From positions 118,952-138,951 of the forward strand of contig QPGO01000196.1 in assembly GCA_008632985.1 (NCBI GenBank): a stretch of 20,000 bases of DNA. The letters run 5' to 3'. Numbering within the stretch: the stretch's first letter is position 1; every line of letters begins with the position of its first letter. This DNA is from Psammoneis japonica. Its lineage: Eukaryota. Below the pieces are notes generated by a model. That model was not told where the DNA came from, made no database searches, and was given only the letters and a program-made list of their open reading frames with translations. The translations under genes were made by a program, and so were the position numbers. Positions 1-20,000 of this stretch are shown here, piece after piece.

Positions 1-395
1 GCATGGTGGCAACGCCCAGAATATACCGAGTTCAGCCTTGAGTTCTTCGAGGCTCGTTTGGAGCACTATAGAGAAAAAGCATGCATGGAAAATCATCAAG
101 CTGCTGCTGATGAGCTAGCACTGGCTCATGACAGGCGGCTGTTCCCCAAGAAGCCAACCAATTCCATTGGCAAGCCTCGATGGGATCTTTGGCAGAAAAA
201 TATTTGAAGACAGACATTGACAAGGAAAAGCACACAGTGCTTGCACCACGAGAACTTTGCAAAACCCATGAAGAGCACCAGGTATTCGAGCTAGAGGTGT
301 TCAGAAAGCACATTCACCAAGAGGTGAAAAAGCGAAAATACATTGCGTGGTGCAAGAACGATGCAGAGAAGAAGGCAAAGGGAGAAAAGAAGTAG
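1..395 (+). pseudogene. Frameshifted C-terminal part of a transposon accessory (putative DNA-binding) protein
   Basis: Frame 1 reads AWWQRPEYTEFSLEFFEARL...LAHDRRLFPKKPTNSIGKPRW up to 183, then shifts to the 180..395 frame GSLAEKYLKTDID...EHQVFELEVFRKHIHQE. There is an internal repeat (RPEYTEFSLEFF / HEEHQVFELEVF). From recall, it resembles ORFs found beside diatom DDE_Tnp_4 transposases. Confidence 0.55.
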
Positions 396-417
396 TAACT
401 TTCCAGAAACTACCTAA

Positions 418-750
418 TTAGTAGCTGCTACCTTGTTCCACCACCATGCCATCCCCACGCTTTTTCTTCTTGGCGCCACCCTCCATGGTCGTCTTGAATG
501 ATGCGAGCAAGCGATCCGCAAGTTTCTTGACATCGCTCTCGTCAAGTCCCATCTTGCCAACCTTCCTGGCGAGCACATCGACTTCTTCTAAAGGCTGCAT
601 CTCCTTGATGAACTTCTTCTTGATGTAGAACGTGTCGTCCTTTTCATGCAAAAGCACCTTGACCTTCTGCGCGGTGATCTTTTTCACCCTTCCCCATTCG
701 CCTTGGTGTTCTCCACCGACAACGTCAACGATACTTCCTTTGGCAATCAT
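418..750 (-). CDS. Small (110 aa) KOW-motif protein with a basic C-terminal patch
   Basis: From the ATG at 750 it reads MIAKGSIVDVVGGEHQGEWGRVKKITAQKVKVLL, matching the KOW pattern G-x-x-V-x-V-x-x-G-x-Y/H-x-G-x-x-G-x-V. The frame is open to TAA at 418 and includes an NLS-like KKKKR. Confidence 0.6.
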   Translation of the reverse strand: MIAKGSIVDVVGGEHQGEWGRVKKITAQKVKVLLHEKDDTFYIKKKFIKEMQPLEEVDVLARKVGKMGLDESDVKKLADRLLASFKTTMEGGAKKKKRGDGMVVEQGSSY

Positions 751-988
751 GGTGGCCTTTTCTGTTCCAATTGTGGATTGTGATTTGACTGCGAGTGTGA
801 GCTGTGTAGTGCTGTGCTGTAGCATGGACCGTGAGCATGTGGAACTACATTTGCACACTACAATTGTAGCCCACCTAATCTATACGGCAAACCTGTCGAA
901 CATGTAAGTCCCACAAAATCTTGACTATTTTTATAGCTACGCGAGGGTAAGAGCCACAATTCCACAACAAAATTCACTGGTCCGCACG

Positions 989-1459
989 ATGCTTCATATG
1001 TCGAGTAGTCAAGTGCTGCGGGTTGGCCTGCAGCTCTATGGAGTTGACATCCATCACCAGAAACGGTCATCTGAGGTGGGTAACATCCGTCGATTCAAAA
1101 AAGTCTATGGCTCTAGCCCTGAAGTTTGCAAGAAAATTTTTCATGACCTCCAAATGACCAAGGTAGAAGCGGCAAGGATTGATCCAGCAGACATCTGTCT
1201 CGACTATTTCTTTATGGCCATGAATTTCCTAAAACTGTATGAAACGGAGGAAGTCCGCTCGGCCACTTTTGACGCATCTGAAAATACAATGCGCAGGTGG
1301 GTATGGCATTATGTTAGAAGGATTCAAGCACTCAAGAAAGAAAAAATCCTTTCGGAGACGTTTCGCCACGGCATCAAGAAGCATCGACGATGCTTCGAGG
1401 CCGTGTGCATGATTGCGCAGTGCCAGTTGGAATGTGGCTCACCCCTCTTTGACATTTAG
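989..1459 (+). pseudogene. PIF/Harbinger-ISL2EU-type (DDE_Tnp_4-like) transposase with an in-frame deletion of the catalytic core
   Basis: N-terminal motifs (RRFKKVYG, FFMAMNFLKLYETEEV, SENTMRRWVWHYVRRIQALKKEKI) join directly to the C-terminal motif LSETFRHGIKKHRRCFEAVCMIAQCQLECGSPLFDI. No DDE residues lie between them; the junction is near 1343-1348. Confidence 0.7.
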
Positions 1460-1507
1460 AGTGTGACGTCACATCACGATGTTTCTAGTAGTCATTAACA
1501 TTTAACA

Positions 1508-1631
1508 AATGACTTTCCACGATGAGTGGTCATTAATGACTTTCCACGATATTTAATGACTTTCCACGATAGCATCGTGGAAAGTAAAGACTTTCCACGA
1601 TGGAAATGAATCGTGGAATACTTTCCACCAT
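1508..1631. repeat. Cluster of direct and inverted 12-16 bp subterminal repeats, (AAT)GACTTTCCACGAT
   Basis: Direct copies at 1511-1523, 1538-1550, 1558-1570, 1589-1601 and a variant at 1620-1631. Inverted copies at 1574-1585 and about 1610-1620. Positions 1559-1585 form a perfect 12-bp stem with a 3-nt loop. Confidence 0.9.
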
Positions 1632-1740
1632 GCGACTACCTTCCGTTAAATTATGACTGCATTGAATAATCATTACATACATTAATTAAATGTGTTTGAA
1701 TTAATGGGGCAGTAAGTATTTTTTCAACGGACAGTGAGAG

Positions 1741-2688
1741 GGCAACATGTGGATTCAGATGTCCTCTTCACGTAATCCCATAGTAGATTCTATACTGAGA
1801 AGTACGAGCGTGCCCAGTACGACACTCAACGTACTTTCCACGCTTTTGCGGCGACTTCCAGTACTCGATGTACGCTCTTGTTTATGGCGGTCACTTACTT
1901 GTGGATTTCGTGTAGTTTGGCGGGCTTACTTTATGTGCCACATTGCTCTGCTGCACTACCACATTTCACAAGCAATTAACGATGGTCAAGGACATGACCA
2001 TTTCGTCTTGATAATCAATCCTGTGATGGTTATGAATTCCATTATGGATTTTTTGTACTTCAACCATCTATCAGTTGGATTTTAATCATGATTTGGACGT
2101 TTCTTTTTGACATGCCGGTGCTATTTTGTCATTCCGTAGGCACTGCTTTCGTGCACTAAGTGGATAAATGTCCATTTTTCTTTTCTTTTTCTGAATCTTT
2201 GGCACATCTCGTGTGTCGACATGATAAGTTATTTATGTCTTGCCTCGTACATTGTACAATGCAACCGTATGGGTGTTGTGAGATTGTCTTTTGCCATTGT
2301 GAAGTGGATGCATATAATGCACACCAATCTGTCACTGTTTTTTCCTAACCGTCCTTTAATGAGGTGATTATATCCTCATGACATGAGCATTTTTCGATCT
2401 CACTCGCCTCCATGAAAAGTGTTCGTATGACATGTTGCGTCCAACAATTTGGAGGGAATGTCTTTATCCCGTTTTAACGGCAGGACAGTGTCGTAGGATT
2501 CAATTTTCTACACCATAGTAAGTCAGCTGATCGCGTCTATCATGACGATGTTCGCCTTGCCCTCGATGCATTTTAATTCGGGACTAAAGTTTTCTATAGT
2601 AAGTCGCCAACGTATGACTTTGTCCGTTGTGTCTTATGATCTGTATGTGTGTTAATCTGTTGGCCAAACAGTGTGTTTCGGAATTTTA
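1741..2688 (-). pseudogene. pol: Ty3/Gypsy pol, 3' part (RNase H C-terminus and integrase), highly degenerate
   Basis: Minus-strand remnants: FRNTLFGQQINTHTDHK (~2635-2685), TTDKVIRWRLTIENFSPELKCIEGKANIV..DAIS*L (~2520-2630), zinc-finger end CQRFRKRKEK.GHL (~2165-2205) and RNPQ...ER.HRVL (~1860-1910). Many frameshifts. Confidence 0.8.
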
Positions 2689-3259
2689 TCATTCAGTGAG
2701 GGCGCGTGAAAAACCCGGGTGTGATGCGTGTTTTTTCACTTTGGCGAAGGCCATTGAGCTGTTATCAAATTTATTTGATCACTAAGACGTGTGTTCACTG
2801 TTTCTCCTTTATCATGATCGTTGATCAATGAATCAACAGTTGCAATGGTCCGAACAGTTGCGGTGTTGCTGCCTCCAACACGTGAAGGGGCGTGACGCCT
2901 GGGGCACTCGGGGAATTTTCCCGGGTTTTTATGTGTGCTTCGTGCCCGTAGAAGTTGTACGGTGCTGCACTGCAACTCACGACGAAAAAGGCAACACGCG
3001 AGCCTTGTTGCCGCAGTGACAACAGAATGCACCAATAGAACAACAAACGTTGGTTTCTCGTCATGCCATCGAGTTTACAGCATCAACAGCAATTAGGTAC
3101 GGCTGAGGAGGCAGAAGTGGGATCCTCACCATTGAGCATTCGAGGCTTGATGGTCGCTGGTGTGGGTGGTGATGACGCGACAGAAGTATGTTTTTTACAG
3201 GTGACCATAGCAGAGGCCGACTGAGAGGGAGACGGCAGCGACAGTGGAGTAGAACATTG

Positions 3260-4805
3260 TCAGCTCAAGACCAACAACACTTGAAACACCTCTGTGTAGC
3301 AATAAAATGACAGAAACACTCACATTCTGTTAATTCACCATCTTCATCCCCATCACCAGAATTTTTGATTGTTGCACACAAGAGCATCGTGAGGCCTCCC
3401 GACCCACTGGCATTATTAATGTTTGCATTTCACCCATGAAAGATGAGAAGCAGTAACTCTCAAGAGCACCAGTAGTGAGTTTTAGACACTGCAGAAATAA
3501 AGGGAATGGAGAGAGTAAAAACAATGTAGCCGCACATGCCTTGAGCACCGCAGAAAAGGATTGACGTCATCATTCTTTGAAAAGACTCATCAAAATGCTA
3601 TGAAGCATTCAGCACATTCATCAGCTCAAGAATGTCAATATAAACAACTGTGTGTAACAAAATGACAGGAAAGCTCACATTCAGTCAATTTGATTGTTGC
3701 GTTCGAGAGTGTCGCAATCGCGAAGTCGCGTCGCTGTGCATCCCGACCACTGGCATTTTTGGTTGTTGCATCTCAATGAGTTGAATTGTTCAGCATCTGA
3801 ACCACAGCAGGAAAGAGGAGAAATGGTAAGTCTCAGACAAAAAAGAAAGAAAGGGAATGCAGAGAGAATCAAAATAATGTTGGCACATGCCTTCTGTGTC
3901 GCACAGTGCATTGGCGTGTTGTAGCGGCATTCCGACCACCAGTGTTCCACTAGCATTTTGATTCTTGCATTTTAACATCTTGAATTACTCAGCATCTGAA
4001 CCACAGAAGGCAAGAGCAGAAATATTAAGTCTTAGACAACAAAGAAACAAAGGGAGAATCACAATAATGTGGCACAAACCTGGAGTGTCGCACAGTGCAT
4101 CGGCGTGCACCGGCATCCCGACCAACAGCATTCCACCACTGTTTTTTTTAATCTCCCATTTCAATGTCTTGAATTTATCATCACCTGAGCCAGCAGGCAA
4201 GAGGACGAATAGCAAGCCTCAGTTAGCAAGGGAAAAAAGGGAGAATCAAAAAAACACCGCACATGCCTTGAGTGTCGCACGGTGTGTGCTGGCATCCCGA
4301 TCAACAGTGTTCTACTAGCATTTTTGATTCCTCCATTTCAACATCTTGAATTGCTCGGCAACTGAACTACAGCAGGCAAGAGGAAAAGTAATAAATCTCA
4401 GACAAGAAAGAAACAAAGTGAAAATCAACACAATGCCGCACACACCTTGAGCATCGCATGGCGTGCACCGGCATCCCGACCAATGGATTCCAATAGTGTT
4501 TTTGATTCCTCCATTTCAATGTCTTGAATTGCTCAGCAACCCTCTTGTAGCAGACAAGAGGAACAATAACAAGTCTCAGACAACAACAAAAAAACAAAGT
4601 GAAAATCAAAATAATGTTGCACACACTTGAGCATCTCATGGCGTGCACCGGTGTCACGACAACTGGAACTCGACTAGCAGCATTATTGATTGTTGCATTT
4701 TAAAATTGGTTAAATTGCTCTGCACCTGGCTATAGCAGGCAAGAGGAGAAATGGTAACTGTCAGACAAAAAGGAAACAAAGGCAATGCAGAGAAAATCAA
4801 AATGA
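3260..4805. repeat. Diverged ~180-bp tandem repeat array (about 6 clear units plus older, longer units at the left)
   Basis: The anchor GCATCCCGACC (with variants) recurs at about 3394, 3738, 3927, 4113, 4292, 4471 and 4651, with spacing of roughly 178-189 bp across the last six. Shared blocks include TTGAATTGCTCAGCA, GCAGGCAAGAGG, AAGTCTCAGACAA and GAATCAAAATAATG. 3262-3328 is also echoed at 3622-3683. Confidence 0.9.
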
Positions 4806-5089
4806 TGGTCTTGTTTCGCTGTCATCGGCATTTGCGCAAAACCTTAAGTGTGTGGTCGTGAACGTTTCGTAAGAGAAAAAAGAAGCATTCTTAGAAAATG
4901 CAGCAATGCTGTACACAGAATACACACATGTGTCATTGTACTTGCATGCCTTGCGGCATCGTACCGACTCAATCGCATCGTGGCTTTGCCACTGTCACCA
5001 TTTATGCCGACTCCATTGTTGTTTCACTGTCGTTGCTGTTTATTGTCACCTCTTGTACTCATCCTGCGATGAATTCTACGCAGACAAAA

Positions 5090-5232
5090 ACCAGGCGTGA
5101 TGCCCCGGTGCTTCACACCCGCGTTATTTATGCGGGTGTGACACCCCAGGTGTCACACCCCATAAAAAAAGGGGGTGTGATGCCTGTTTCTGAATCCGGG
5201 CGTCACGCCTACCCAGGCGTGACACCCGTGCG
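5090..5232. repeat. Subterminal quasi-palindromic GGCGTSACGCC-type repeats of the TIR element
   Basis: Several decayed copies occur in 5090-5232 (GGCGTGATGCC, GGTGTGACACC, GGTGTCACACC, GGTGTGATGCC, GGCGTCACGCC, GGCGTGACACC). The same motif occurs at the left end (~2718 GGTGTGATGC, ~2889 GGCGTGACGCC). Confidence 0.8.
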
Positions 5233-5253
5233 AAATGCGCCCTCACTGAACGA

Positions 5254-6900
5254 CAAGTGTTTTCACTATGGACAGAAGTTCTTTTTTCCGTTGTAACGTA
5301 TAACATTGAAATTCGTGCATGACAACAACATGGTTTTTGATTTGATGCGCTCCACATTTTCGGAGACTTTTCATTCTGTACTTGCACTTTTGCTGTTTGA
5401 CCTTTATTAAGGTGAATTTGGCTAGCATTGTACAGGAGATTGTTGAGACTACATGTCTTGATAGTAGTAACGTATAACGACGAGATGTTGTCGTGTTCTT
5501 TACGTTTTTCTCGTGTTGCGATTACCTGAATCGCCTCCATTTCCTTTGTAATTGATTGCATGTCGTTACGCATGGAAGTCTTGATAGTTTATTTCAAGTT
5601 AAGTAGTGAAGGACTTTTGTTGTTAACCTTCTAAGCAACTGTTCTAGTTGTGTGATGCCGTTTCAAGCTTTTCTTGTACTGGTGACATTTTGAAGTCACT
5701 TTTTGTCAGGTATAAACGATCATATATAGTCTTTCTGACAACTTCAAACCTGTTATGAGTTCACTCATGTGTTGTATAAAAATATCTGGGGCTCTATAGC
5801 TTCTCATTGGAAGTTCATAGTGCTCATTTTCTCCCCACGGCATGATTTTCGTGTTGGCACGACATGTGCTTTTATAATTTGATGTGACAATGTCCCACAT
5901 TCAAATCGAGTGAGGTTGTATATATGAAATTTCTGAAGTATATCCTGAATGTTTGGTAGAGGATGCGGTGCACGTACTGGCCTCTTATTCAGTTCACGAA
6001 AGTCGGACAGAAACCGAGCTTCAACCATTTTTCTATTTTTTAAAGGTTGGAGCTGTCCATTCAGAATAGTTTATTTTTCTTTAGGACTTTTAGCTTACAG
6101 AGCCTTTCAATCTACTTACGAGTCGCCTCCAAGGCTTGTAGAAACAGGAAACCTTTTGCCTGACATGGTTTTGAGCCAGATTTCACTGCGAGGTTTTCCG
6201 GTCCACTTGCCTAGAGAACCATCAAAAAGAGTTTTAAATCTTTTCAAAGGGAAGATCAATTGCTTCTGCTCCTCTGGAGTCAGATGAGTTGCCGCAGCTG
6301 TCACATTATTGAGATTAGCAGTGTGATAATGTGAGTAGTCGAGGACCATTGGTTCAGTTGTTAACTCTATTCACGGTGTCACATTTTTCAATGTGATCAG
6401 CATTCAGCTGGAAACATCAGCTTCGAAGAGTGGATCAACATTCTTCATAGATGTAGTTGCTTCTTCCTCTTTGATTTCTTCATTTGCATGGTCCAATGTG
6501 ATTTCAAGACTGGACATTAAGTCGCATCTCATGATCGTGTCATATGGACTTGAAGAAGAACAATTTTTATCAACACATGATGTTGTTTGTATCATCATAT
6601 GCTTGTCAATTTCAGGCAAAGAGAACTGTATTGAACAGCGACTATCAGCCGTGAAGAGTCACCCTCGGTTTCCCAAGTTTTGGTGGCGGACTTCATTCTC
6701 ACTTCCGTGTGAATTTGCGCAAAATTATGGATGACAATGTTCTTTAACAAAAAGAATGGCGTTGAAGCTTATTTTTTGCTTTCCTCAGAGAAGTGCTCAT
6801 ATGAACAGCGAGGATAGGACTAGCACAACATGCTATGATGCTTTTTCTGGATTGCCAGACGTCCTGTAATGCGTTATACTCCTCGAGTGGTATAAATTTT
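5254..6900 (-). pseudogene. pol: Ty3/Gypsy pol, 5' part (protease, reverse transcriptase, RNase H), highly degenerate
   Basis: YDTIMRCDLMSSLEITLD (protease YDMIIGRD-like), HLTPEEQKQL...FKTLFDGSLGKW, RFLSDFRELNKR...HPLPNIQDIL, MPWG..E..LPM...APDIF..MSELI, a broken YIDD at ~5715-5730, and KELLSIVKTL at ~5256-5287. The PR-RT-RH-IN order defines Gypsy. Confidence 0.85.
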
Positions 6901-7735
6901 TGATCGGAATCGATCGGATCAATTTTTCCGAATTGACAGTTTCGTTCACTAAGTGTTTTAGAGTCGTAATTTTTGTTCTTATTTTTACGTTCCTTTGCCG
7001 AGGAACTCATTTTTATTGTTTTTGTGAACTGCCCAGTCACTGTGGCATTCAATTCCTCTTTCACAGAGACATTTTTCTGCTGTTGTCACGTCGCGTGCGA
7101 TTGCTGTTAGAGTGTCATATTTTTGGGTCTCTCTCAGAGCCACCCTTGCACTCTTTTTGCTGCTTCATTTTCAGAATAGCTTCAATCCGTGATGCAGGTG
7201 TTCTTTTTTCAAAGATTGGACCTCTTGTTCACTTTGGATTGTGCAGGCACCACACAGGAGACCATTTTGGAATCAAATTTGGAACCATTTTGAATTTGGA
7301 ATCAACTTTGCTGTCAGTGCCTGATTTGATATATTTTTTCGTCATGGACGTCTTCAACGACCTTTAGATGACTCAAAACTTAATCAGCTCATCAAGGATG
7401 AGTTCCAACAGTTGATTGTTTTGAACAGTAGACTGATGCTGCCATCCTTGCGGTGCGAGTCATGGCTGATAGCTCAGCGCTCGGTTTCGCGCTAGATTCG
7501 ACTTAGAATCGATTGAAGGGTCGTATAGACGCTCTTCATTGACCTCTTGGGTCTAGCAGAGGCTTTCTTGCTGTTAAGCTGCTCTGGTTTCTTCAGATCG
7601 TCTCGAAAATAATGATTCTGATTCTAAAGTGCAACTTGTAACTTCTCTCCATAAACAAGTCGAGGGGAGTGTAATTAAGTAGTTTAAACACTTTGTTATG
7701 TGAAATGTCCAAGTTTCCATCGACCGGGAGAGGGT

Positions 7736-8878
7736 TCAAGTTGGCGAGCCGACTTTGGTGATTTGTGTAGAAAACATACTAAGCTCTACGTACGTAGAAT
7801 CTGGCCCACTTTTGTACCCATACCACCTTAAGTTAAGGTCGCGGAAGTAATCAAGCTCTTCCTCGCGTGCCTTGCACTTTTTCTGAGCATTGGCAAAGCA
7901 CTCGTCTGCCTTTGTTCCGATGATAGTATGAACATCTTCTTCAGGCTTGGATTTCTGATTGGGCTTGCCGCCTCCACCATTGGCATGGTTAGTCTTGACA
8001 GGTTTCACGTGAAGCTTGAGTGCACGGCAATCGTCAGCATGATGTCCACAGTTAGTCCCATGGAGCATGCACGACTTCTGGGTGTTCTTCTGATTCGTGA
8101 TCAATGACTCAGAATTGTCCGTTCTATGGCCCCGCTTACGTGGGACCTTAGTATGTTGGTCCTGGTTACCTTTGGTAGACTCGACCTGCTAGATCCACTC
8201 GCAGAATTGTACAAACTTGGACATAGTATGAGCCAACGGGTCAAAATTCTGTAGTGTCATGATCTTCTGCCACGCATTTGTCACTCCGTACTCGAGCAAG
8301 TCACAGAGTTCGTCATTAGGTAATGACACCAGTGCTGCTCCTCCCTGCGTCACAGGCGGAAACTGAGAGACACAGCCATTAATTTAAACAGCCCTTGCTG
8401 CATAGTCATGAGTAGAAACATCAGCAGGCTTGCGCATGAAGCGTCACAGATAACGTTTCTGCAATGGTGCCACCCCATGTGGGAAGATACTTTCCTTTAG
8501 CTTTGCTATGCACGCGGCATGCGCAGCATTGGTTTGAGACGCCTGCTCTTCAGCGGCATTGTTAAAGGTTGTCAGGGCATCGCCCTGGAGAAGCCTGCAC
8601 ATAAGTGCATGCTTCGCCGGCCCCATAGTCATGTTTTGTCCTTGATGCACGTGCTCGGTGTTGCATAGAAAAACAAGAATTTCCTCGCATGTTCCCATAG
8701 AAAAGTGTGGTAGACCCATCTCGTGCATTGGACTGTCAGGATCAGCAGGGTCGTTACATAGCTTGAACGTCTGGTACTCACCCTGCTGCAGTTCCTTCTT
8801 CTCCGGCCGTGCAAACGGAATCGGCGGCTTGAGACGTTTCTTCCTGGTGGTTTTCAAGTTTGTTGGTCCTACCAACAT
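7736..8878 (-). pseudogene. gag: Ty3/Gypsy gag, one reading frame with three premature stops
   Basis: Reads LKPPIPFARPE...GTCEEIL...RLLQGDALTTF...QKRYL*RFMRKP...QFPP...LPNDELCDLLEYGVTNAWQKIMTLQNFDP...FVQFCE...CMLHGTNCGHHADDC (zinc knuckle). In-frame stops at 8444-8446, 8384-8386 and 8189-8191; no frameshift up to the knuckle. Confidence 0.8.
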
Positions 8879-8905
8879 ATCGTAGTTTTCGTTTTGTAGA
8901 TTTCA

Positions 8906-8922
8906 TAACCTCGCACACCATG
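8906..8922 (-). promoter_or_regulatory. Candidate LTR 3' end (CA) and primer-binding site
   Basis: The minus strand reads ...CCCGCA TGGTGTGCGAGGTTA about 30-40 nt upstream of the gag ATG. CA followed by TGG is the canonical LTR/PBS junction. The priming tRNA was not identified and there is no second LTR in the window. Confidence 0.35.
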
Positions 8923-10153
8923 CGGGAGTAACATTACTGTGCCCTGTGCATGCAATGGGCGACGAAAATGTAGATGTGTTGCAACTGTATCGATGTGAAA
9001 ATTATGAGCTAGTTTACATGTAGAGAAATGTAATTGTGCGAATAGGGAATCTTGTCAAATTAGCTGTTTGTTAGCATTTTGGATCGTACCAATCGATTGT
9101 GCGTTCGCATTGTGGATCGTGCAAATCACACCATCACGCACTGTGCATGAGTGATGTCATCGTGTGGAATCACACCACTGTTGTGGGCCAGACAACAGGT
9201 TAGTGTGCTTCACATGGGTGCTCTCTTGGCATCCTTCTAGATTGCCTAAGACACAGAGCCACGCCCTCCTATGGTCGTGCTTCCCAGGTACGTGCTGACA
9301 ATGCTACATTGCCAGCACGTACAAGAGGCTATGCACGGTCTCACCGTGTTGTCCAGTGCTGAGGCATGCTGCAGTTTGTGTGAGCTTATACATGCTTAAT
9401 GACCATGTGTTATTGTGTAACTTGCGTACGTGACTGTCTTGGCATGTTATTTCGTGCAATGTCTCAACGGTCAAAACACTCATAGTAAACAATTAAAGCC
9501 ATTAATTTAGTTTATGGCTAATAAAATGTCATGGAAGCATTGCCAGCTGTTGACAAATGCATCGCTGAAAAGCTGAGATCAAGAGCTTTCGATCAGCATC
9601 CATACCTCAAAATCGACCATACGAGCTATTTCGAGCTCCGTTAGCACCTTTCTATGTGGCCAGTCTTAAATGCTCACAAAAACACAGCTACGTGTCTCGC
9701 CACATACAAAGCCACTACCTGCGACGACCATGGCTGATGCATCGACACATCGACGCGATGCGCCCCCCCTTGTGGTAGAATTAGGAGGAATGAGCTTTTC
9801 CATTAAGTTCTCCACATTAACATCAGTCATGTGTGGTTCTACTGTGGCCTTAGCCTTTACTGTAGATGCCTCATGGCTTGCATTTGTGACCACACAACAC
9901 AAGCATGATAAAACGATCTGCTGCATTCTGCACATAAGATGCATGGAAGGGAGGAAACAACGTGACTGTTCAATCCACCACATTTTTATTAGCCATGTAA
10001 GGTTCTACTTTTGCCTTAGCCATCACTCTAGTTGCCTTATGATTCGCATTTGTGATGACACGACACAAAAACAGTGCTTTTCTGACAACCGATCTGTTGC
10101 ACTAGCATTCTGCATATAAGCCACCATATTTCACCTTATCTTTTATGCTATAG

Positions 10154-10168
10154 ATGACATTCAATCAA
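10154..10168. repeat. LINE target-site duplication, left copy
   Basis: ATGACATTCAATCAA, identical to 18126-18140. Confidence 0.9.
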
Positions 10169-10279
10169 AAAAAAAAACAGATCTATGTTTATAGTGCTGT
10201 CACTCCTTTGCCAGCTAAGCCGGCACCGGCTAACCCACACTTCCAGTGCACCGTTAAGTGCGGCAGAAGCTTCTTGGGA

Positions 10280-13200
10280 TCAGCCGGAAGGGGCATCACC
10301 ATGAGATGACGCCCATCCAAAATAGCTTGCAATGGAGCGAGTGCCACGAAGCGCTTCACGCTTCGCCTTCTTTAGGCTTTCTTTTAGACGTGGTTTGACC
10401 ACAGCAATCCAATTCATAATCCGTAGTGTAGAGTGGGACATGTGGTCGTCAACTGAATCCAGCAGCACCTCTCTGTCTTTAGCCAAATAATCCTGTCTTT
10501 TGTTGTAAACAGCCGTAGGCTCGGCTTCCGCCTGACGGCGTAAAGATGATTTCCTCGAATCTGCGTCATGACCATGAACCTCTTGATTATGTTCTTCCCA
10601 CAGTTCCCACCAGGACTTCCAAATGTAACTTCCCATCTGCACTCCCCACACAGGAGGGGGTCAATTCTCTTTCCCACATTTCTCCAACAGACCCGTCTCA
10701 CGAAGATGTGTCTCCTGAAACACATTCCAAAGGGTAGAGCACCGTCCGTTAAAAACTTGTCGCCATCCTATCTCTGACTGGGCTTTCCATGGCATTCTCA
10801 GCATTGGGGTAATGTCAGATTCACACTGCATCTCACCTCCTGGCCATGTCTCAAGGGAAGTCAGCAGTGGATCGCATGGAGGTGGCATTGTGTCAATTTT
10901 GTTACAGTATTTTCGTAAGCCCTGTGGGAATTTGCAATGCCAGGCCTTGTTGGCGGTGCACCGTAAAATATGGTCGCGATCCTCCACAGGGTGTTCGCAC
11001 GTGAGGCAATGATGTGGCCGTACAGGATTGCACCGATGAGCAATCTTGTTTGTTGGAAGGAGCTCGTGGATGAGTTTAACCATGGAGACATGTTTCTTGG
11101 AGTACCTGCACACCAATGTTGCATGGACCTCCCAGTCGATCTTTTCTGTGATAGATTCATCCCAATCGTTTCTTTCCCAAACACATGCTAAGAGAGCGGG
11201 AGCCGTAGTGGCACATCTGACCGTGGATTTCATTCCTGCAGTGACTGTTCCATCGGTGAGGCACAGGCATGATTGACAATGGGGAAAGGGAAGTGCCTCC
11301 ATTGTGTCTGTGTCATGTTGTCCCTGGCATCGTCCTTCCAACTTATCTGCACTTACGTTAACTTGTGCATTCAGTGGGAGGGTCTCCACTGACTGGAGCC
11401 TGTCTATCCTGGTGTCCTTTTACCCAAGCTATGGACGGAGCTTGCCCGGGGGAAGAAGGATTTAGAGCCTGAGAGATGGCTTCAAGCGTTAAGTGCATTT
11501 CATTGATGACATCCCAATTGGATGAAAGCACATTGGCATCATGCTGTCACAGATAAAAGTCTCTGTCGGAATGTTCTTGTGCCGACGGGTCGATGGATGG
11601 GCGGCTGGAAGACAATCTGGAAAGGACGTGGACCAAGGCCCTGTTGTCACACCAGTTGTCGACACCTTCATACATTGACATCTTGCAAAACTCAATCAGA
11701 TGATAGATGAACCGAATCAGGGAGAGAAAACCGTAAGCCTCGGCTTGACAGAATGATGGCGAACGACCAAACACCGGACCAGCACAATCCACCAAGGGTC
11801 TGCCGTTGTATGTAACAGTCCATCTGAAGGTTGCATCGTGATGAAGCATGGATCCGTCACTGCCCGCCACGAGGCGACTTGATACAAAAAAGTCCACCAG
11901 TTCATAAACGGGAATGTGGAAATCAATGTCTGAAAAGAGAGAGAACTCCCAGGTGGGCAATGCTTGCAAGCGGTCTGCGAATAGGTCGGGTAAGGGTGGA
12001 GTTGTTTCAACCGAGAGTTTCGGGCAATGAGGAATGTATTTCCATCTGCCGTCTTCTATGGAGACAATCTCAACCGGGAATGATGAGTCAGAGGGGGAGG
12101 GAACCGTTTCGAGTTGGTGCATCGACGTAGCAACAGTGTCCTGGACTGGAAAAATGTCAAATCCTGATGGAGATCGAACGTACAAGTGTGATTCTTTGGG
12201 AGACCAGCATGCTGAACATTGCATCCTCATTTCGGAAGGGGGCATGAGCCAGTCTCCTAAGGGAGCTTTCAAACGAAAATGAGTCTTGATGGCACAACAA
12301 TTCACATAACCGCATCCAAGGACTCCATGCATGGTGGCAAGGTTTAATCTGTTCGACATTGTTGAGGGTGCTGACACTGCTGAGGTACGTAGGATCACCA
12401 TAAACTTTGGACTCATCTAAGAAGCGTCTGTCTGCCAGAGTGATGTCCGAGACTTTCAGGACCTGAAGATGCAAGCAGCAACAGTTGATCCATCGGATCT
12501 CTCTAGAAGAGAATGCTTGTGACTCAAGAGCAACATCCATTAAAAACTGATCGTTGACTCTTTGCAAGGGGAGTGCACCGTCTTGGGATAGTGTAATGCA
12601 TCCTCCAATGCTCCGTAGAAAAGACCAAACTGACCAAACCATAGCGACTCGTCATGTGGATGAGGAGCATTGACATCTCTGAGGAAGCTAACCCCCGTGC
12701 CTAGATGCAGCTGATTCCATGCAATGGCAATGTGAACCGCAGCGTATGGTTGGTCATCTTGAATCAGATGCTGTGTGCCTCGAGAATGTTTCAATGGCTG
12801 TTGTATTTGGGCAATGCCCTGTTCTACATCAAGAGAACAAAATCCACCGCCACCAAGAGATTGCGGGCCGTATAGTATCAGACGCTTTGTATTCCTGTTG
12901 TAACCACATTTGGTGAATAACATAACTCTCATAGCGCGTTGCTGTATTTGTTTCAACACTTTGGAAGCAAATTGAGAGTTAGCGAGAACAAAAGACATCG
13001 ACGGCAAATAACATGCATGGTAGCATCTCCACAATTCGGTCCAGTCTAGAGGGACAGCCCGAATGAATAACGCTTTTCCATCACTCTTGGCTTGGAGCAC
13101 TTGTTGCTGTTTCTTTAACGTCCCAGCTGGGGAAGGGTAGTGTCCCAGTGTTTTATGCGGAGCAAAGGGAGACAACTGCTTGCTGCATCTGGAAGTGGAG

Positions 13201-16100
13201 CGATCGGCTGAGAAAATTTCCACTGACATTGTACGGTTGGAGGCTCGGTTAGCCAAATTCTGAGAAGTCCCAATTGATCGCATGAAAGGAACACTTAGGG
13301 AGTTCTAGTTCATGTCCACTGGCATGGAGCAAGTCGCACCAGAGTTGGTTATCGTGCTGCAATTTGGGAGCTAAATCTTCTGCAGAAGGCTGAGGAGATG
13401 CTCTGAAGTCATTCACTTGCTTGGACGTGTCGTCTACATGTCCTCTTGTGTAGATGTTGAGCTGATGAGACCTGTCTGGTGATTCGAAGAATGCGCCATT
13501 GGCCTTGGAGTCGAAGATATCAAACAGAATGCTGCATAAGTTGTTCCAGTAAATAGGGGAGTCACCACTGCCTTGGCCAGCACCGTAGATGGGGCATTCT
13601 GCATTGTGTGAATAAGATTCCTCAGAGACCCAACAAGGTGAGCAACCAGCACCTGGCAAGATGGACAGTTGTAATTGCTGCAGCCACTGCTGACAATTCC
13701 ATGCCCAAACTGACTGATGTGATCGCCATGAGAACCGGGAGATTCCTGTCGTAACACGAAGTGCAATCGTCATCACTCGTGATTGACGTCTTGCGAGAGA
13801 CCCTTGATTCTCCAACATTAGAACTTCTAGGAATACAGGAGTCTGAGCACACAGGAAAGCTCGAGTGCCGTAGATGCCTGGATTGAATAATTGATGTTGT
13901 TCCACATGTTGCGCGAGGGCTCGCCATTTCACGCTGGTAATCAACTGGAAGTCCGCTTCGTATATGTGGATCACTGGAGACGGTGGATCTTGTATTGCCT
14001 GGCTCTTTGAAGATCATACATTGACAACATCCCGCCACCTGTCGTAAGAATATCCCCATTTGAGTGCGCAGTTGAGCAGATTTAAGCGGATCTGTTGTAG
14101 TCTGTCTTGAACTTCATCCAATTCAATGCTTCTTGTAGTGGGTCACCTTGTGAATCCGTTTCTGAAGAATGCATGTGCTTAGAATACATGGCTTTCCAGT
14201 GGCCTAAATGAAGACCGGACTTAATCGAAGTAGAAGTGGATTCTGTCCATGACTTGAATTTCCCACGAACTTCTTCGGGTGCAAGAAAATTGGACACAGA
14301 CACTGGGGTTCATCGCTGGAGATGCTTAATCAGTAGAGCCGTAGCTTCAGTCAATCCGGACGTGGAACACTTGCCGTCAAGAATAAGATCTGCCATGATG
14401 GTGTTACCTTCGTACCCCGGGTCTATCAACAAAGGAGGAACGGTTGGAGGAGTGCCGTGAGCCTGTCCAAAATGTTTTCGATTCCGTGCTGTCAGGGCAG
14501 CTGCGACATCTTGTGGAGCGTCATTGTTCCCAGTTTTCACATGTCTTGGGATCCTCTAGAGGATTAGCCGGGACCTGCACTTTGCCAACACTGGAACCAT
14601 CCTTGTCGTCAAACGCATTGATTTTTGGAATACTCGAACCGTCTCTTCTGCACATCTTATGTTCCGAAGAATCTTTGCCTCTTTAGTCGCTGCCTTGGTA
14701 CCTTCTAGATCTAGTTCTGTGATCCGAGCGTCACGTTTTCGTTCACGGTGATGTAGACTGTCGCGAGCAACTTTCTTACATTTGGACTGGGCACGTCGGA
14801 GAGCATTCTGACATTCCTCCAAAGCAGTCGGGAGAAGGAACGACTCCTTTAATTTGTATTTTTCATGAACAATCGATTCCACAAAGGCAGTCCTGTTTTT
14901 AAACATAGAAAGAAGGCGAGACAGGATGAAGACTTTGCTGCACAGGTCCGCGAGTTTTGAGACCACTCTGGTTCATGATGACGCCGGCAATGTTTTGCTG
15001 CTGAGATACAAAATTGTGTCATATCGTGGTCCAACCATTCTGCAAGGGCATGGTCTGGCTCTTCAGATGCAAGGAGTGCTGCACTTCTATCTAACACATT
15101 TCGACTCTTGAGCATTGGACCAATGGCTTCGAGGTAAGTCACAACATGCTTCGGAGACTTTGCGAGGAGGGTTCGATGGGATGGGCGAGGGAGCTCGGCG
15201 GAAGAATTACCAAACAACAACTCTGTATCAAAGTCCACATAGTGGCCGCGGTGGTCCAAGGAAATTCTGTATCCAAATGATTCGTAACCGCATTTTGTGA
15301 CAGCTTGGAGAGCACCTGAAGTGGCAAGGACGTAATCAAGTCAGCGGGATCCGCAGAGATAGGTGGCAAAGTCAAGGTCCTGTATTTTGTTGTACATCAT
15401 GTCAGAGAGCTTGAATCTCATCGCTAAGCGGGCCAGAGAGTCAGTGCCATTTCGAAAATCAGTGCTAAAATCACCAAACAAAATGACTTCCCGATTAGGA
15501 TTGTCCAGAAATGTTTCCAATATCTGGGAGAGATCATAACAAAACGCGTGTCTTGGCTCTGGTCTTGCTCAACCTTGCTGGCGCAGTAAGTTAACCTGCT
15601 GGGCGTATGCTGTAGTTTTTTCTGCAGTCAAGGAATTGTTAGAGCGCACATGGCAGCACGAGATGAACATGACTTGTTTGCCGTCAAAAATTTGTATGGA
15701 CCATCTTCCTAGTGGATCGAGCATCTTGGTGCGGCAGTGAGAAGCGACTGAATTGCATGACATGATTGCGGTGCCTCCAGGCTTATGTGGAGTTGTAAAG
15801 GGGATGGATGATGCCGAGAAGGTGACTCGGCCGTGGTGGAGGGTGTTTTGGATGACAGAGCGGCAAGGTTGTGCAATGGAAGGTTGGGTGGTGTCTAGAC
15901 ACGTCTCTGATGTCCCAATGACATCAGCCTGAATCTCATTGATAACCTGGAAGCAGGAGTTGAAGTCGCCACCAAGAGAATCAAAGGCACAACCATTTGC
16001 ATTGAACGTAGAGACGAGTGGCATCAAGAGATTTTGGACCAAGCGGGTCCCCAAGTGAGTCATTTGATTTTAGATTCGAAATGGTCAATGGTTTGAGGGG
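10280..16100 (-). pseudogene. LINE ORF2 polyprotein (APE endonuclease, reverse transcriptase, RNase H, CCHC), multiple frameshifts and stops
   Basis: APE (~15230-16060): RLYVQ/NANG, VIGTSET, KPGGT, DPLGRWS, LFGDF, DHRGHYVDFD. RT (~13250-14250): SGLHLGHWKA, KEPGN, IHIYEADF, GAGQGSGDSP, GHVDD, GHELELPKC. RNase H (~11340-11870): GSDGS, AEAYG, WCDN, DWDV, NVSADKL. C-terminus: CLTC..EDRDHILRC, QSEIGW..F.GR, WELWEEHN..HG, stop at 10280. The start position is approximate. Confidence 0.9.
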
Positions 16101-16229
16101 GAAGAGAGCACTGTCTGCCGTCAAGGAGGTGTTGCCATTGTTGAGCAGTGGCTTGCACTGAGGTGGATGATGGTGCATTAGAAGAGGTCCCCTGCAAAGC
16201 AGCAGGAGCATTTGTGTGGGAAGGGGTGT

Positions 16230-18036
16230 CACCCCTCACATTGAGGCCGTGCTCCCTTGAAGGGAGACTGGAATAGATTCATTATCTGCATCTGAGGTCA
16301 TGGGCGAAGAAGACGACTTGGTCCGCCCCGTTAAAAATGCGAGTCCTTTAGGGACATGTCCATCAAGGAGTTGTCCAGGGGTGCCTCAGAAGAAGCTCCA
16401 GCAGGGGCACTGGCATTTGGTTTCTTGCACACAGGAATGAGCATGCATCTGATGCTTGGTCCGGGAGGGGCAACCGAGCCTGAATAAAGGTCTGTAGTTC
16501 CTTAATGAGATTATCGATTTGAAGCTGATGCTTTGCCGTGAGGTCCTGTTGGAGGGCAGCCACAGATTGTTGGTGTTGCTTTTCAATCTTTGTTGGCCTG
16601 TCTTCATTTTCTTGTTTCATACGAGCCATTTCTTGTTTTAAATCATCCATGTCAGACGCGTGATCTGTAAGATCTGAGGTGGCAGCAGTGGGCAAAGGTT
16701 CAGCAGGGGATGAGTTAAGAACTTCAGCAAACGTTTTGAAGGGAGGAACGCCAACGTTGGAGGGAACCAGAGGAGCAGGAGGGGCCGTACTTGTCGCTGC
16801 AGGTTTTGGGGAAGCATCTGCGCTGTCTTGGGAAACATCTGAAATGTCAAGGGAGGTCCAGCTCTTGACACTGGCGGAAGTGATAGAATTCGCTGTGTCT
16901 GATAATTCATCTGAAATGCCTGGAATCATGGGGAACGGTTCACCTGGGGCTGTCAAAGAGCCGTCGGGGATTACATCCAACATTCTCCTGAGATTCTTTG
17001 AAATGTAATCACGAACAGACTTATGATGTTTCTTGGAGGCCAAGACATTAAACCTTGAAAAGGCAGTCTTCCTCTTAGAAGGAACTACGTCTGTGACTCC
17101 TTCAAGGATGATGAAACGGGGACGAAATAAAAAGTTGATATCAGTGGCATACAATGCAGAAGGGGAACCACGTAAGTCGTTGCCTGGAGTTTCTGTTGGT
17201 GTTCGACCGCCTTCTCATAAGCTTCAAGCTCGGTTTGTGAGTACCGCCAACAGGATAGGATTAAGAATCTTGGACACTTCTTCAGGATTTCCAGCAACAC
17301 TCGAATAACATCTTTCGCCTTATCACGCGGTGTTTCAATTGAATAAAAGTCGGCACTGACATTCTTGTCAGTCGGAGAGGTAATCTTTTGAGGAATAAGC
17401 CGGATAGGCATTTTCGCTCGGCGACTCTTAGGTGCAACTGCTTGAATGCTCTTGATGACAACATCAGCTGTGTAGCATTTTGGGAGAAATTCGGAAACTT
17501 GAGCTACACGAACCAAATCCACTACCGTTTCGTCCCATTCATGGCGGCGCATATAGATGGAGTTAGTTTGGAGAGTTTTGGTTACGAAGGGAATGTCTCT
17601 AATGTCCGACATAGTCAGGGACATGCGGATACGATGAACAATTACATGTGTTGGCTTGCGACGATGAGAACCGCCGATACGGTGAATCACAAAATGTTGG
17701 GAGTGAGTAAGGCCAGCAGTCCATTCAACCATGTTGATTTCCGGAATCACCTTTCCGCGACTGGAGAAAATAGATATCTTGTTGACTAGTGGGTCTTGAG
17801 TTGCTTTTTGTTGTAGAATTTGTAACACCTGTGTGTGGCCCATGGCGAGTGCAGTAGAAGCATTGGCATCATCGGAGGTACATTCAAAACAGAGGGTGAT
17901 CTCGGTAGTTCCATCATTGTTTGAAGTGCAGTTTCTGGCACGGGCAGGAGTAGAAGGAGCATCGTCTTTGTCTTTGGGAGGATCAGGGGGGATCTTTGCC
18001 AGTGGGGCTAGCCTGTGGTGTCGGAGAGGTCGTCAT
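16230..18036 (-). pseudogene. LINE ORF1 (gag-like protein with Pro/Ser-rich linker and coiled coil), frameshifted
   Basis: ATG at 18036 (MTTSPTPQASPTGKDP). A +1 frameshift in a C6 run (~17986-17991) leads into the 17085..17843 frame, then the 16363..17154 frame with the coiled-coil-like MDDLKQEMARMKQENE...LIKELQ. It lies upstream of APE and inside the TSDs. The end is approximate. Confidence 0.7.
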
Positions 18037-18125
18037 GGTGACGAGAACGTAGCACAAAACACACGTAGAATTCCATGTAGAAACTGTCAATGTGAAGCTA
18101 CGTAGAAAAGTTTCCAAGCTGCAGA

Positions 18126-18140
18126 ATGACATTCAATCAA
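18126..18140. repeat. LINE target-site duplication, right copy
   Basis: ATGACATTCAATCAA, identical to 10154-10168. Confidence 0.9.
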
Positions 18141-18749: not shown

Positions 18750-20000
18750 AGTCTAGAATGTTAATGATGCTGGAACCAACCGTTGAAGAAACTAATTTCA
18801 TGAAGCTGCGACATGCCTCTACAGGTTAAATGCAAAAGGACGAATCTCGGCAAAAAGCTGTGAATGATGTGCTGTCGCAACTGTTCCCGGAAGTTGCACG
18901 ATGTTCCAACAGAAACAGGGGGCAAACCAGCCGAATGCAGCATTTTTCTGGCAAGCCATCAGTGGCAGACCCGATCCCTGAAAGAGTGGGAGCACTGCTT
19001 GCCGGCATGGTGTTGAGAACCAAATTTGCCATGCATCCAACTCCGTTCCCCATCCACAAACACATTATGTTGCCTTTCATGCCCTCAACCATTGTTCTAG
19101 TTCTGATGGCCAAACAAGGGAGTGCTGCTTGCCGGCACAGTCTTCAGAACAAAACATGTGACAAGGTGGTGGCCAAACCAAGGAATGCCACCAATCAAAC
19201 TCGGTTTCCTGTCTACACTACAAACACAGATGATTGGCCTCAATGTGAGCATCACAATGTGCTGGGAAACAACATCAATGGCACAAAAGGTCATGACAGA
19301 GCCTCTCACATGCAGAACTTACATGCACCGTGTAGAAAGCCAAACTAAACACCGTTGCGGTGCCCGTGGCAATGACGGTGGTTCACAATGCTGAAGGTGT
19401 GAGCATCATAGCATTGGCAACAACAAGAGCAGCAAACAAGGTGGCAATGGACACGCTCATGAGCATCACTTGCCACACACATTGCAACCAAATCGAGTGA
19501 CGCTTTTCCTGAAACGGATTGATTGACGGGAAGAAAGCAGCAAGAATGACATCACATTTAATGCCAAGCCCACCTCTCGACCAAATCCAGGAACACCGCC
19601 AATCCAACTTGGTTCCCCATAAACAAGCACGTGTCTGACACAGAAACTTGACAATTGGTCTCGATGAGACTGAACGTGAGCTTCACAAAATGGGCAACAT
19701 AATCAGCAGCAAAAAAGCTCGTCACACACACACACTCATTAGAAGTGGTGCATGCCACATGCACTGCAACCAATTCAATTGACACTGCTTCAAGACAACA
19801 GCATCTTTTTCATCCACACATTTACAGCCTTCCACGAGAAATGGGTGGGTCACACATTCTTGAATCTGTCGAGAAAAAACAAAAATAGCGACGAAAGCAG
19901 TGAGCAACAGGTGTGAGTGACAGCAATGTCATACAAGGCAGTGATTGTCCATTTTTGGATTTGTTCTCACCTCTCTTTTCATAGATGCACATGACAGATC

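Follow-up and report, generated by a model that had tools for sequence, protein, structure and literature searches.

Loss of TpA dinucleotides to TpG and CpA in transposon-rich blocks of a diatom genome

Do the dead mobile elements of the diatom Psammoneis japonica lose TpA dinucleotides in a directed manner, on top of the decay of CpG? The question is raised by a stretch of 20,000 nt (GCA_008632985.1, contig QPGO01000196.1, forward strand, positions 118,952-138,951), here called the window, which forms the terminal 20 kb of contig C196 in an assembly of 91.4 Mb and 597 contigs. It contains nested dead elements, namely the remnant of a DNA transposon, a gypsy-like remnant split by an element with terminal inverted repeats (TIR), and a full-length long interspersed nuclear element (LINE). 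Diatoms were the source of the named relatives for the LINE family and for a host editase. An initial annotation, based on the letters of the window, had proposed an undescribed, repeat-directed process that converts TpA to TpG or CpA. Comparison of the elements with their relatives supports a TpA-specific excess of T>C and A>G changes on both strands, which runs from TA to TG or CA, is confined to repeat-rich blocks and is separate both from the deamination of 5-methylcytosine (5mC) and from the polarity of fungal repeat-induced point mutation (RIP). That a TpA-directed A:T to G:C process exists in this diatom we regard as nearly certain.

Direction and specificity of TpA loss

Across the whole window the ratio of observed to expected dinucleotides (o/e) is 0.50 for TA, 0.72 for CG and 1.37 for CA/TG. 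The TA value by itself is not remarkable, gene-like stretches of the same genome lying at about 0.5-0.7. The window is a lightly hit case and most sister copies are near saturation: TA o/e is at most 0.12 in 20 of the 30 fetched loci of the LINE family (window included), and 62 of 69 window TA sites read TG or CA in the copy of the TIR element on contig C2.

The element copies are related to one another, and counts pooled across copies are not independent. For copy L032, rates were scored where the window and copy L031 agree, with 0.5 as the ceiling for T>C at TpA. T>C was found at 63 of 178 TpA sites, compared with 7/557 at TpC, 20/515 at TpT and 36/582 at TpG (TpA vs TpC and TpT together, 27/1072: p=4e-37), and C>T at CpG occurred at 39 of 191 sites. 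The lineage of the window itself shows the same preference (7/67 at TpA vs 8/360, p=0.004). Where a window TA site had been changed, it read CA or TG in 123 of 132 cases in L032 and in 96 of 102 in L033, both strands being affected (L032: 69 CA, 54 TG; L033: 58 CA, 38 TG). Private A>G changes outside TpA amounted to a small spill-over (40/2226 in depleted vs 12/1802 in TA-rich copies).

Comparisons within the window agree with this picture. A duplicate of bases 1-1347 sits 11 kb upstream and differs at 34 columns, classified by hand as 14 TA vs CA/TG, 12 CG vs CA/TG, 2 other transitions and 6 transversions; 14 of 108 TpA bases have thus changed, against 2 transitions among about 1125 other bases (p=7e-14). 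In case of the gypsy-like pol fragment (1858-2689), TG or CA stands at 17 of at least 54 TA sites of copy L036, the reverse is seen at 1 of 40, and CG is lost at 12 of 41. The remainder of the same remnant shows partial loss of TA and CG relative to copies L036 and L145. The tandem array inside the TIR element had supplied the starting observation, and TATA (4731), TACA (4368), TGTA (4546) and CACA (3803 and 4002) are indeed found there at one shared aligned site. Taken alone the array is weak evidence for a TpA excess, with 13/16 TA columns vs 53/115 control columns (p=0.014, unpolarised). The accompanying AACATC/AATGTC alternation had been taken for CpG decay, which is not demonstrable: each of the 10 listed instances has CA or TG and neither CG nor TA occurs, so that a TA ancestor fits equally. 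The flanks of the TIR element had been given as TA and CA. The actual target duplication is AT on the left, changed to AC on the right; the T>C change at a TpA is genuine, as T stands at this position in L036 and L145, which lack the insertion.

The direction of change was established from proteins and from discordant copies. Fifteen tyrosine columns are conserved in 120 outside proteins; at these columns, the 127 residues of TA-poor copies comprise 43 Cys, 24 His and only 11 Tyr, besides 27 Phe and 12 Asp, which are family-level differences. In depleted LINE copies His is retained at 74 of 76 positions, and stops occur at none of 111 Gln and none of 86 Trp positions. At 37 columns of the LINE, 60% or more of the outside homologs carry Tyr; the window has Tyr at 17 of these, Cys at 7, His at 2, Phe at 6 and another residue at 5, so Cys or His stands at 9 of the 26 columns bearing one of Tyr, Cys and His. 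None of 25 conserved His columns reads Tyr. Further, of 47 sites converted in both L032 and L033, 17 read CA in one copy and TG in the other, so neither CA nor TG can be the ancestor. CG stands at no more than 2 of 167 such TA-derived sites, while L032 retains 120 of 218 CG elsewhere, which means that the ancestor was not CG and hence TA. The change runs from TA to TG or CA, and from Tyr to Cys or His, not from His to Tyr.

A set of peptides in the window had been read as Tyr replaced by His or Cys. All of them are present, eight could be checked against relatives, and Tyr was borne out for several. IAQCQ of the transposase is IAQYQ in L124 and IAQHQ in L125; in pol, LKCIEG corresponds to IKYIEG or LKYIED in L036 and L252, and HTDHK to YKDHK in L036. 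In the LINE, two positions of NCCCLHLQV are Tyr in 61/67 and 52/67 outside homologs and HKPGGT has Tyr in 68/83, while at the C position of HRCNP Tyr is the commonest residue with weak conservation (28 homologs). The reading is not borne out for HIHQE and EEHQ of the accessory open reading frame (ORF), where relatives alternate between His and Cys and none has Tyr, nor for the two gag motifs, which had no relative among the fetched loci.

Compartment, sequence context and relation to CpG decay

To define the extent of TpA loss, 28 stretches were picked blind on larger contigs and divided into 204 bins of 1 kb. TA o/e was below 0.2 in 99 bins, at least 0.35 in 90 and between these values in 15; about half of the sampled kilobases are TA-depleted. 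Most depleted kilobases lie below 0.1, and depleted blocks reach 0.00-0.1. Block borders are sharp, within about one 500-bp bin, and the borders of TA and CG loss coincide in several stretches. Depleted and normal bins differ in mean CG o/e (0.43 vs 0.98) and in GC content (0.496 vs 0.479). In Pfam searches, which left most ORFs without a match, the domains recognised in depleted stretches were those of reverse transcriptase (RT) and Helitrons, whereas normal stretches had domains of host type; DNMT and deaminase loci also have normal TA. As far as block content was annotated, loss is confined to foreign or mobile regions and host genes are spared. T>C rates differ between TpN contexts, CA/TG is not ancestral and the spectrum is not genome-wide, so that none of the three findings named in the initial annotation as counter-evidence was made.

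Repetition does not predict loss in a simple manner. Ribosomal DNA (rDNA) units keep a normal TA o/e of about 0.5-1.3 (18S: 0.86); the units (L136-L143) were found as 8 matches on at least 7 contigs and diverge by 1-5% over the fetched stretches, chiefly in the spacers. Gene duplicates are hit, namely methyltransferase copies and one deaminase gene copy. The former are C5-methyltransferase duplicates which, by reading of their sequences, were labelled DNMT4-like (L084-L086 and L090, G000:C301 and C297; L093, C28), with TA o/e of 0.03-0.11, some in tandem and partly broken. Intact-looking DNMT4-like genes (L080, L081, L087) stand beside depleted copies, and PF00145 has 29 matches in total. The latter (L078, G000:C151) is a decayed guanine-deaminase-like copy with His where its intact paralog L073 has Tyr. 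In L062 (1-4983), 1661 aa of a Helitron Rep-helicase can still be read without interruption despite a TA o/e of 0.19; the TpA process strips tyrosines without creating stops.

Each site is changed once, TA ending as TG or CA and almost never as CG, and no excess of same-direction neighbours, as expected for same-strand runs, was detected in seven of eight copies (L031: p=0.03). Survival of NTAN 4-mers in depleted relative to normal bins depends strongly on the flanking bases. Among self-paired 4-mers it is 0.51 for TTAA, 0.18 for CTAG, 0.049 for GTAC and 0.005 for ATAT, and among mixed ones 0.29 for CTAA, 0.145 for GTAA, 0.10 for CTAC, 0.061 for ATAA, 0.039 for ATAG and 0.011 for ATAC. In a fit by hand, the mixed 4-mers match the product of two per-strand terms, which gives an A>G order of TAT>TAC>TAG>TAA. 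Aligned copies concur in placing TAY above TAR. Outside TpA, A>G shows a weak lean towards a 3' pyrimidine (24/956 vs 16/1270, p=0.035, one of several comparisons).

TpA loss is uncoupled from CpG decay, which it can outrun, lag behind or do without. The ratio of TA to CG hazard lies at 2.2-2.8 in four copies; in three others, including the window, it is 0.2-0.5, and this 5- to 10-fold spread is compatible with an activity that is not constitutive. In one L124 copy, 17 of at least 23 TA sites are converted and all 16 CG are kept. In L124, two adjacent copies of one repeat (1501-2018 and 2130-2456) have TA o/e of 0.58 and 0.13, with CG intact in both. CG o/e above 0.6 is retained in 38 of the 99 depleted bins, and L254 is the converse case, with low CG and moderate TA.

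Elements of the window

The features of the window are collected in Table 1. Superfamily labels other than that of the LINE were assigned partly from prior knowledge, Pfam naming almost none of the degraded frames. We take the DNA transposon remnant, which has no Pfam match, to be PIF/Harbinger-like, and frames 7736-8902 are presumably gag.

Table 1. Coordinates of elements and target-site duplications in the window
Feature	Position	Strand	Details
DNA transposon remnant	1..1861	+	accessory ORF 132-395; transposase remnant 908-1459; 3' part up to 1861
Gypsy-like pol fragment, left of TIR insertion	1858..2689	-	compared with copy L036
Left target-site duplication (AT) of TIR element	2688..2689	+	empty site in L036; flanks of other copies
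Non-autonomous TIR element	2690..5252	.	sister copy on contig C2
Tandem array of about 180 bp within TIR element	3745..4830	+	TRF: 3781-4623, period 179, 4.5 copies; carries the TATA/TACA/TGTA/CACA site
Right target-site duplication of TIR element, AT changed to AC	5253..5254	+	T>C at a TpA
Remainder of gypsy-like remnant	5255..8902	-	pol fragment 5930-6622; gag-like frames 7736-8902
LINE target-site duplication, left, 15 bp	10154..10168	+	
Full-length dead diatom LINE, endonuclease and RT	10169..18125	-	
LINE target-site duplication, right, 15 bp	18126..18140	+	identical to left
Most TA-depleted kilobase of the window	19001..20000	.	TA o/e 0.22, CG 0.45

Several further observations concern these elements. 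Between the two transposon ORFs, an ORF on the minus strand (418-879) has a weak match to the KOW motif (E=8e-4) and is retained in duplicate copies. The TIR element duplicates a 2-bp AT target, which we take to be a trait of ISL2EU-type transposons, and the left flank of depleted copies reads GT. The 3' end of the LINE is an A run on the plus strand (10169-10179), i.e. oligo(T) on the sense strand. About 15-19 kb upstream of the window lies a gypsy element (L144:975-5729) with an open pol frame of 1164 aa and normal TA and CG. Contig C57 ends in a sequence that is 98-99% identical to the roughly 9 kb upstream of the window plus the first 0.9 kb of the window (L145 vs L252), probably an alternative haplotype. 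This counterpart shows light TA loss as well; the window lies at a contig end, and four further stretches were sampled.

Known systems, candidate mechanisms and significance

The process is not undescribed. The same TpA>TpG/CpA signature has been reported for Bigelowiella natans (Mettrop et al., bioRxiv 10.64898/2026.01.13.699255). Of 231 changes recorded for two viral insertions in its mutation-accumulation lines, 230 were A>G or T>C, all at TpA; the rate was about 6e-7 per site per generation, and only some lines were affected. RT and DDE domains were over-represented in TpA-poor coding sequences, and the enzyme put forward, without proof, was ADAT2 (bioRxiv 10.64898/2026.01.13.699255). Both systems share A:T>G:C change at TpA on both strands, foreign or silent regions as sites of action and uneven activity, and the hypermutation of nucleocytoplasmic large DNA virus (NCLDV) and virophage sequences in B. 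natans likewise has its long-term counterpart in clusters poor in TpA and rich in CpA/TpG. Unlike B. natans, a chlorarachniophyte (Rhizaria), the host here is a stramenopile. The scale differs too, as 124 clusters with Rho<=0.43 and an NCLDV region at 0.45 in B. natans compare with about half of the sampled kilobases here, most with o/e below 0.1. The targets here, unlike there, are LINEs, long terminal repeat (LTR) elements, Helitrons, TIR elements, arrays and gene duplicates. CpG decay in the same blocks and a measured 3' context are further differences, the words 'trinucleotide', 'CpG' and 'diatom' being absent from the main text of the preprint. Activity was seen directly in B. natans, whereas here it is deduced from copies. 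The term 'repeat-directed' also proved too strong, since rDNA has normal TA, the members of a single family are affected to very different degrees, and in B. natans a single-copy target is hit. A literature search, with most subscription papers outside its coverage, found no report of TpA hypermutation in a diatom.

Like RIP, which in ascomycetes is premeiotic and depends on RID/DNMT4, the process wrecks repeats by dinucleotide-specific transitions in sharp-edged compartments. RIP, in contrast, changes C>T at CpA, makes TpA and stops and lowers GC, whereas here TpA is removed, stops do not appear at Gln or Trp codons and GC is slightly higher in depleted bins. CpA>TpA is found at only 3 of 851 sites in depleted copies, and instead of AT-rich, TpA-rich scars the blocks have a TA o/e of 0-0.2. 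With respect to pairing the evidence is divided, as gene duplicates are hit while rDNA and some multi-copy transposable elements are spared. The decay of 5mCpG in DNMT5-methylated diatom transposons (PMC9998398) occupies the same blocks, gives TG/CA products, affects both strands and leaves no runs; it differs in acting on C, and the TpA process can go without it. Among LINE relatives from metagenomes, none of the 80 kept (of 198 loci) was depleted, with TA o/e of 0.49-0.80 and 0.34 in the lowest kilobase; the search favoured intact copies, since one of two patterns demanded Tyr and the best matches were retained, so that decayed copies were selected against.

The simplest chemistry for TpA loss is adenine-to-inosine (A-to-I) deamination of DNA. 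Our best guess at the mechanism, held with modest confidence, is that such deamination takes place in silenced chromatin by an enzyme of the TadA/ADAT fold. A zinc deaminase of the TadA/ADAT2-3 fold would reach DNA in silenced, transposon-rich domains and convert the A of TpA to inosine, which replication would fix as G, and the converted site would no longer be a target. Activity would be regional or episodic, steered by chromatin state and not by sequence pairing; such targeting is suggested by the borders shared with CpG decay, the sparing of rDNA and the unequal fates of sister copies. As a result, codons for Tyr, Ile, Val and Leu would be lost, and mobile elements would be damaged for good while gaining no stop codons. 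DNA deamination by TadA-based adenine base editors (ABEs) and by the amphioxus enzyme BjADAT2/3 likewise gives A>G via inosine, and the activity peak of the editors at TAY equals the order found here (PMC10879117, PMC10354150). An Asn at the position of TadA D108 is required for deamination of A in DNA by amphioxus ADAT2/3 (PMC10354150), and an ADAT2-like gene of this genome has HAE, PCIMC and this Asn. ABEs are engineered and R-loop-dependent, and BjADAT2 also deaminates C (PMC10354150). No natural, chromatin-targeted, TpA-only DNA deaminase has been demonstrated in the literature searched.

Several points weigh against deamination by such an enzyme. The Asn is widespread in eukaryotic ADAT2s, and the contexts favoured by the amphioxus enzyme were GAA and TCG instead of TA (PMC10354150). 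A processive deaminase of single-stranded DNA would give the same-strand runs that are lacking. The set of deaminases looks ordinary (PF00383, 10 matches; PF14437, 6; PF02137, 4 in two genes), with none expanded, and no enzyme was identified in searches that did not extend to ADAT3 specifically, AID/APOBEC, Y-family polymerases and DNMT5. The second of the two editases is found across diatoms, yet all 80 LINE relatives kept in the metagenome search, which favoured intact copies, are undepleted. In depleted copies, A>G is more frequent at ApA (19/716) than at CpA (12/792) or GpA (9/718), which fits polymerase error of the WA type better than TadA. Finally, sequence alone cannot separate A>G at TpA from T>C at TpA, i.e. 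whether A or T is the damaged base.

Two variants were tried and rejected: RNA editing of the ADAR type fixed by reverse transcription, which would give A>G in retroelements only and on their sense strand only, as both strands and also DNA transposons, arrays and target-site duplications are hit, and APOBEC-style processive deamination of single-stranded DNA, for want of same-strand runs in seven of eight copies. With regard to the gene complement, the editase-domain (PF02137) paralogs are L166 and L167 (G000:C40 and C79), the second having no other precomputed domain. Endonuclease V is present (G000:C147:47318-48118). TET/JBP, MT-A70 and the inosine-removing glycosylase MPG had no match in the genome searches, which is not proof of absence, and the control for MT-A70 was silent. 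Weak inosine repair could help to fix TpA changes.

Error-prone gap filling by a Pol-eta-like polymerase, acting in the repair of methylated chromatin, would also produce A>G at WA. Pol eta makes such changes in somatic hypermutation, with far less specificity than the TpA pattern. The common block borders of TA and CG loss, the independent hits on the two strands and the elevated rate at ApA in depleted copies relative to TA-rich ones (2/577) speak for this explanation, which we nonetheless consider unlikely: TpA is struck more than ten times as often as ApA, nearly all changed TA sites of L032 are the two transitions, and changes in B. natans occur at TpA only (bioRxiv 10.64898/2026.01.13.699255). 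Moreover, L124 has lost TA without CG, so the trigger is not the repair of deaminated 5mC. A deposited base mark at repeat TpA, either N6-methyladenine (6mA) that is then deaminated or an oxidised or alkylated thymine, could miscode and be fixed as G:C in analogy to 5mC decay, and we rate this possibility similarly low. The clock-like, run-free pattern on two strands does resemble CpG decay, and TA and CG losses are of similar size in the window. Against it stand the missing match for TET/JBP and, weakly because of the silent control, for MT-A70 (N6/N4 and D12 methylases were outside the search), and the line-specific bursts in B. natans suit an enzyme over passive decay.

Chromatin-guided deamination also has to be set against homology-triggered 'reverse RIP', in which repeat pairing recruits a mutator, perhaps via a diatom DNMT4 related to RID. 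Duplicated gene copies are hit (L084-L086, L090, L078) and the genome has several DNMT4-like genes. We know of no chemistry by which a C5-methyltransferase would yield A:T>G:C, and the rDNA units with normal TA, untouched copies of multi-copy elements (gypsy L036, L145) and the single-copy target in B. natans make pairing a quite improbable trigger. Diatom DNMT4, whose function is unknown, groups near RID according to Hoguin et al. (PMC9998398), but that it was not found outside diatoms in MMETSP (PMC9998398) also counts against this trigger. An artefact of sequencing or assembly seems very improbable. Systematic miscalls at modified motifs do occur in long reads, no library type is recorded for run X1, and the assembly may derive from the same sample as X1; on the other hand, De Bruijn contigs of X1 (depth 28-44) match the depleted copy L033 without differences in seven of eight listed pieces (188-700 nt) and with one in the eighth, and the effect is graded among copies. 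That ordinary CpG decay plus a general scarcity of TpA (low everywhere, in gene-like stretches as in metagenome LINEs), or RIP-type CA>TA gain in TA-rich copies, explains the data is hardly credible, as the 120 outside proteins, the CA/TG discordance and empty-site copies all put TA as ancestral and depleted blocks fall to almost zero.

In conclusion, a signature already described in B. natans is extended here to a new lineage, a far larger scale and every class of mobile element examined, together with a 3' context and independence from CpG decay. Three questions were left open by the preprint, namely whether the process is an isolated case, whether transposons are among its targets and what enzyme carries it out (bioRxiv 10.64898/2026.01.13.699255); a second, distant algal lineage now carries the signature near saturation. 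The order TAT>TAC>TAG>TAA is a test that any candidate enzyme must reproduce, and working gene knockouts exist in diatoms. As frames remain open although their tyrosines have vanished, the dating and annotation of transposable elements are distorted. If true, a natural chromatin-targeted DNA adenine deaminase, in effect a natural adenine base editor, would be of interest to base-editing work. We tentatively raise the idea, to which we give somewhat less than an even chance, that an adenine-directed defence of the genome is an old possession common to diatoms and chlorarachniophytes: a natural DNA A-to-I deaminase of the TadA/ADAT fold, guided by chromatin and preferring TAY, which would have rewritten roughly half of this genome and, in its scale as in its purpose, would mirror fungal RIP. 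Large-scale genome defence by mutation would have a second example alongside RIP, with the opposite chemistry.

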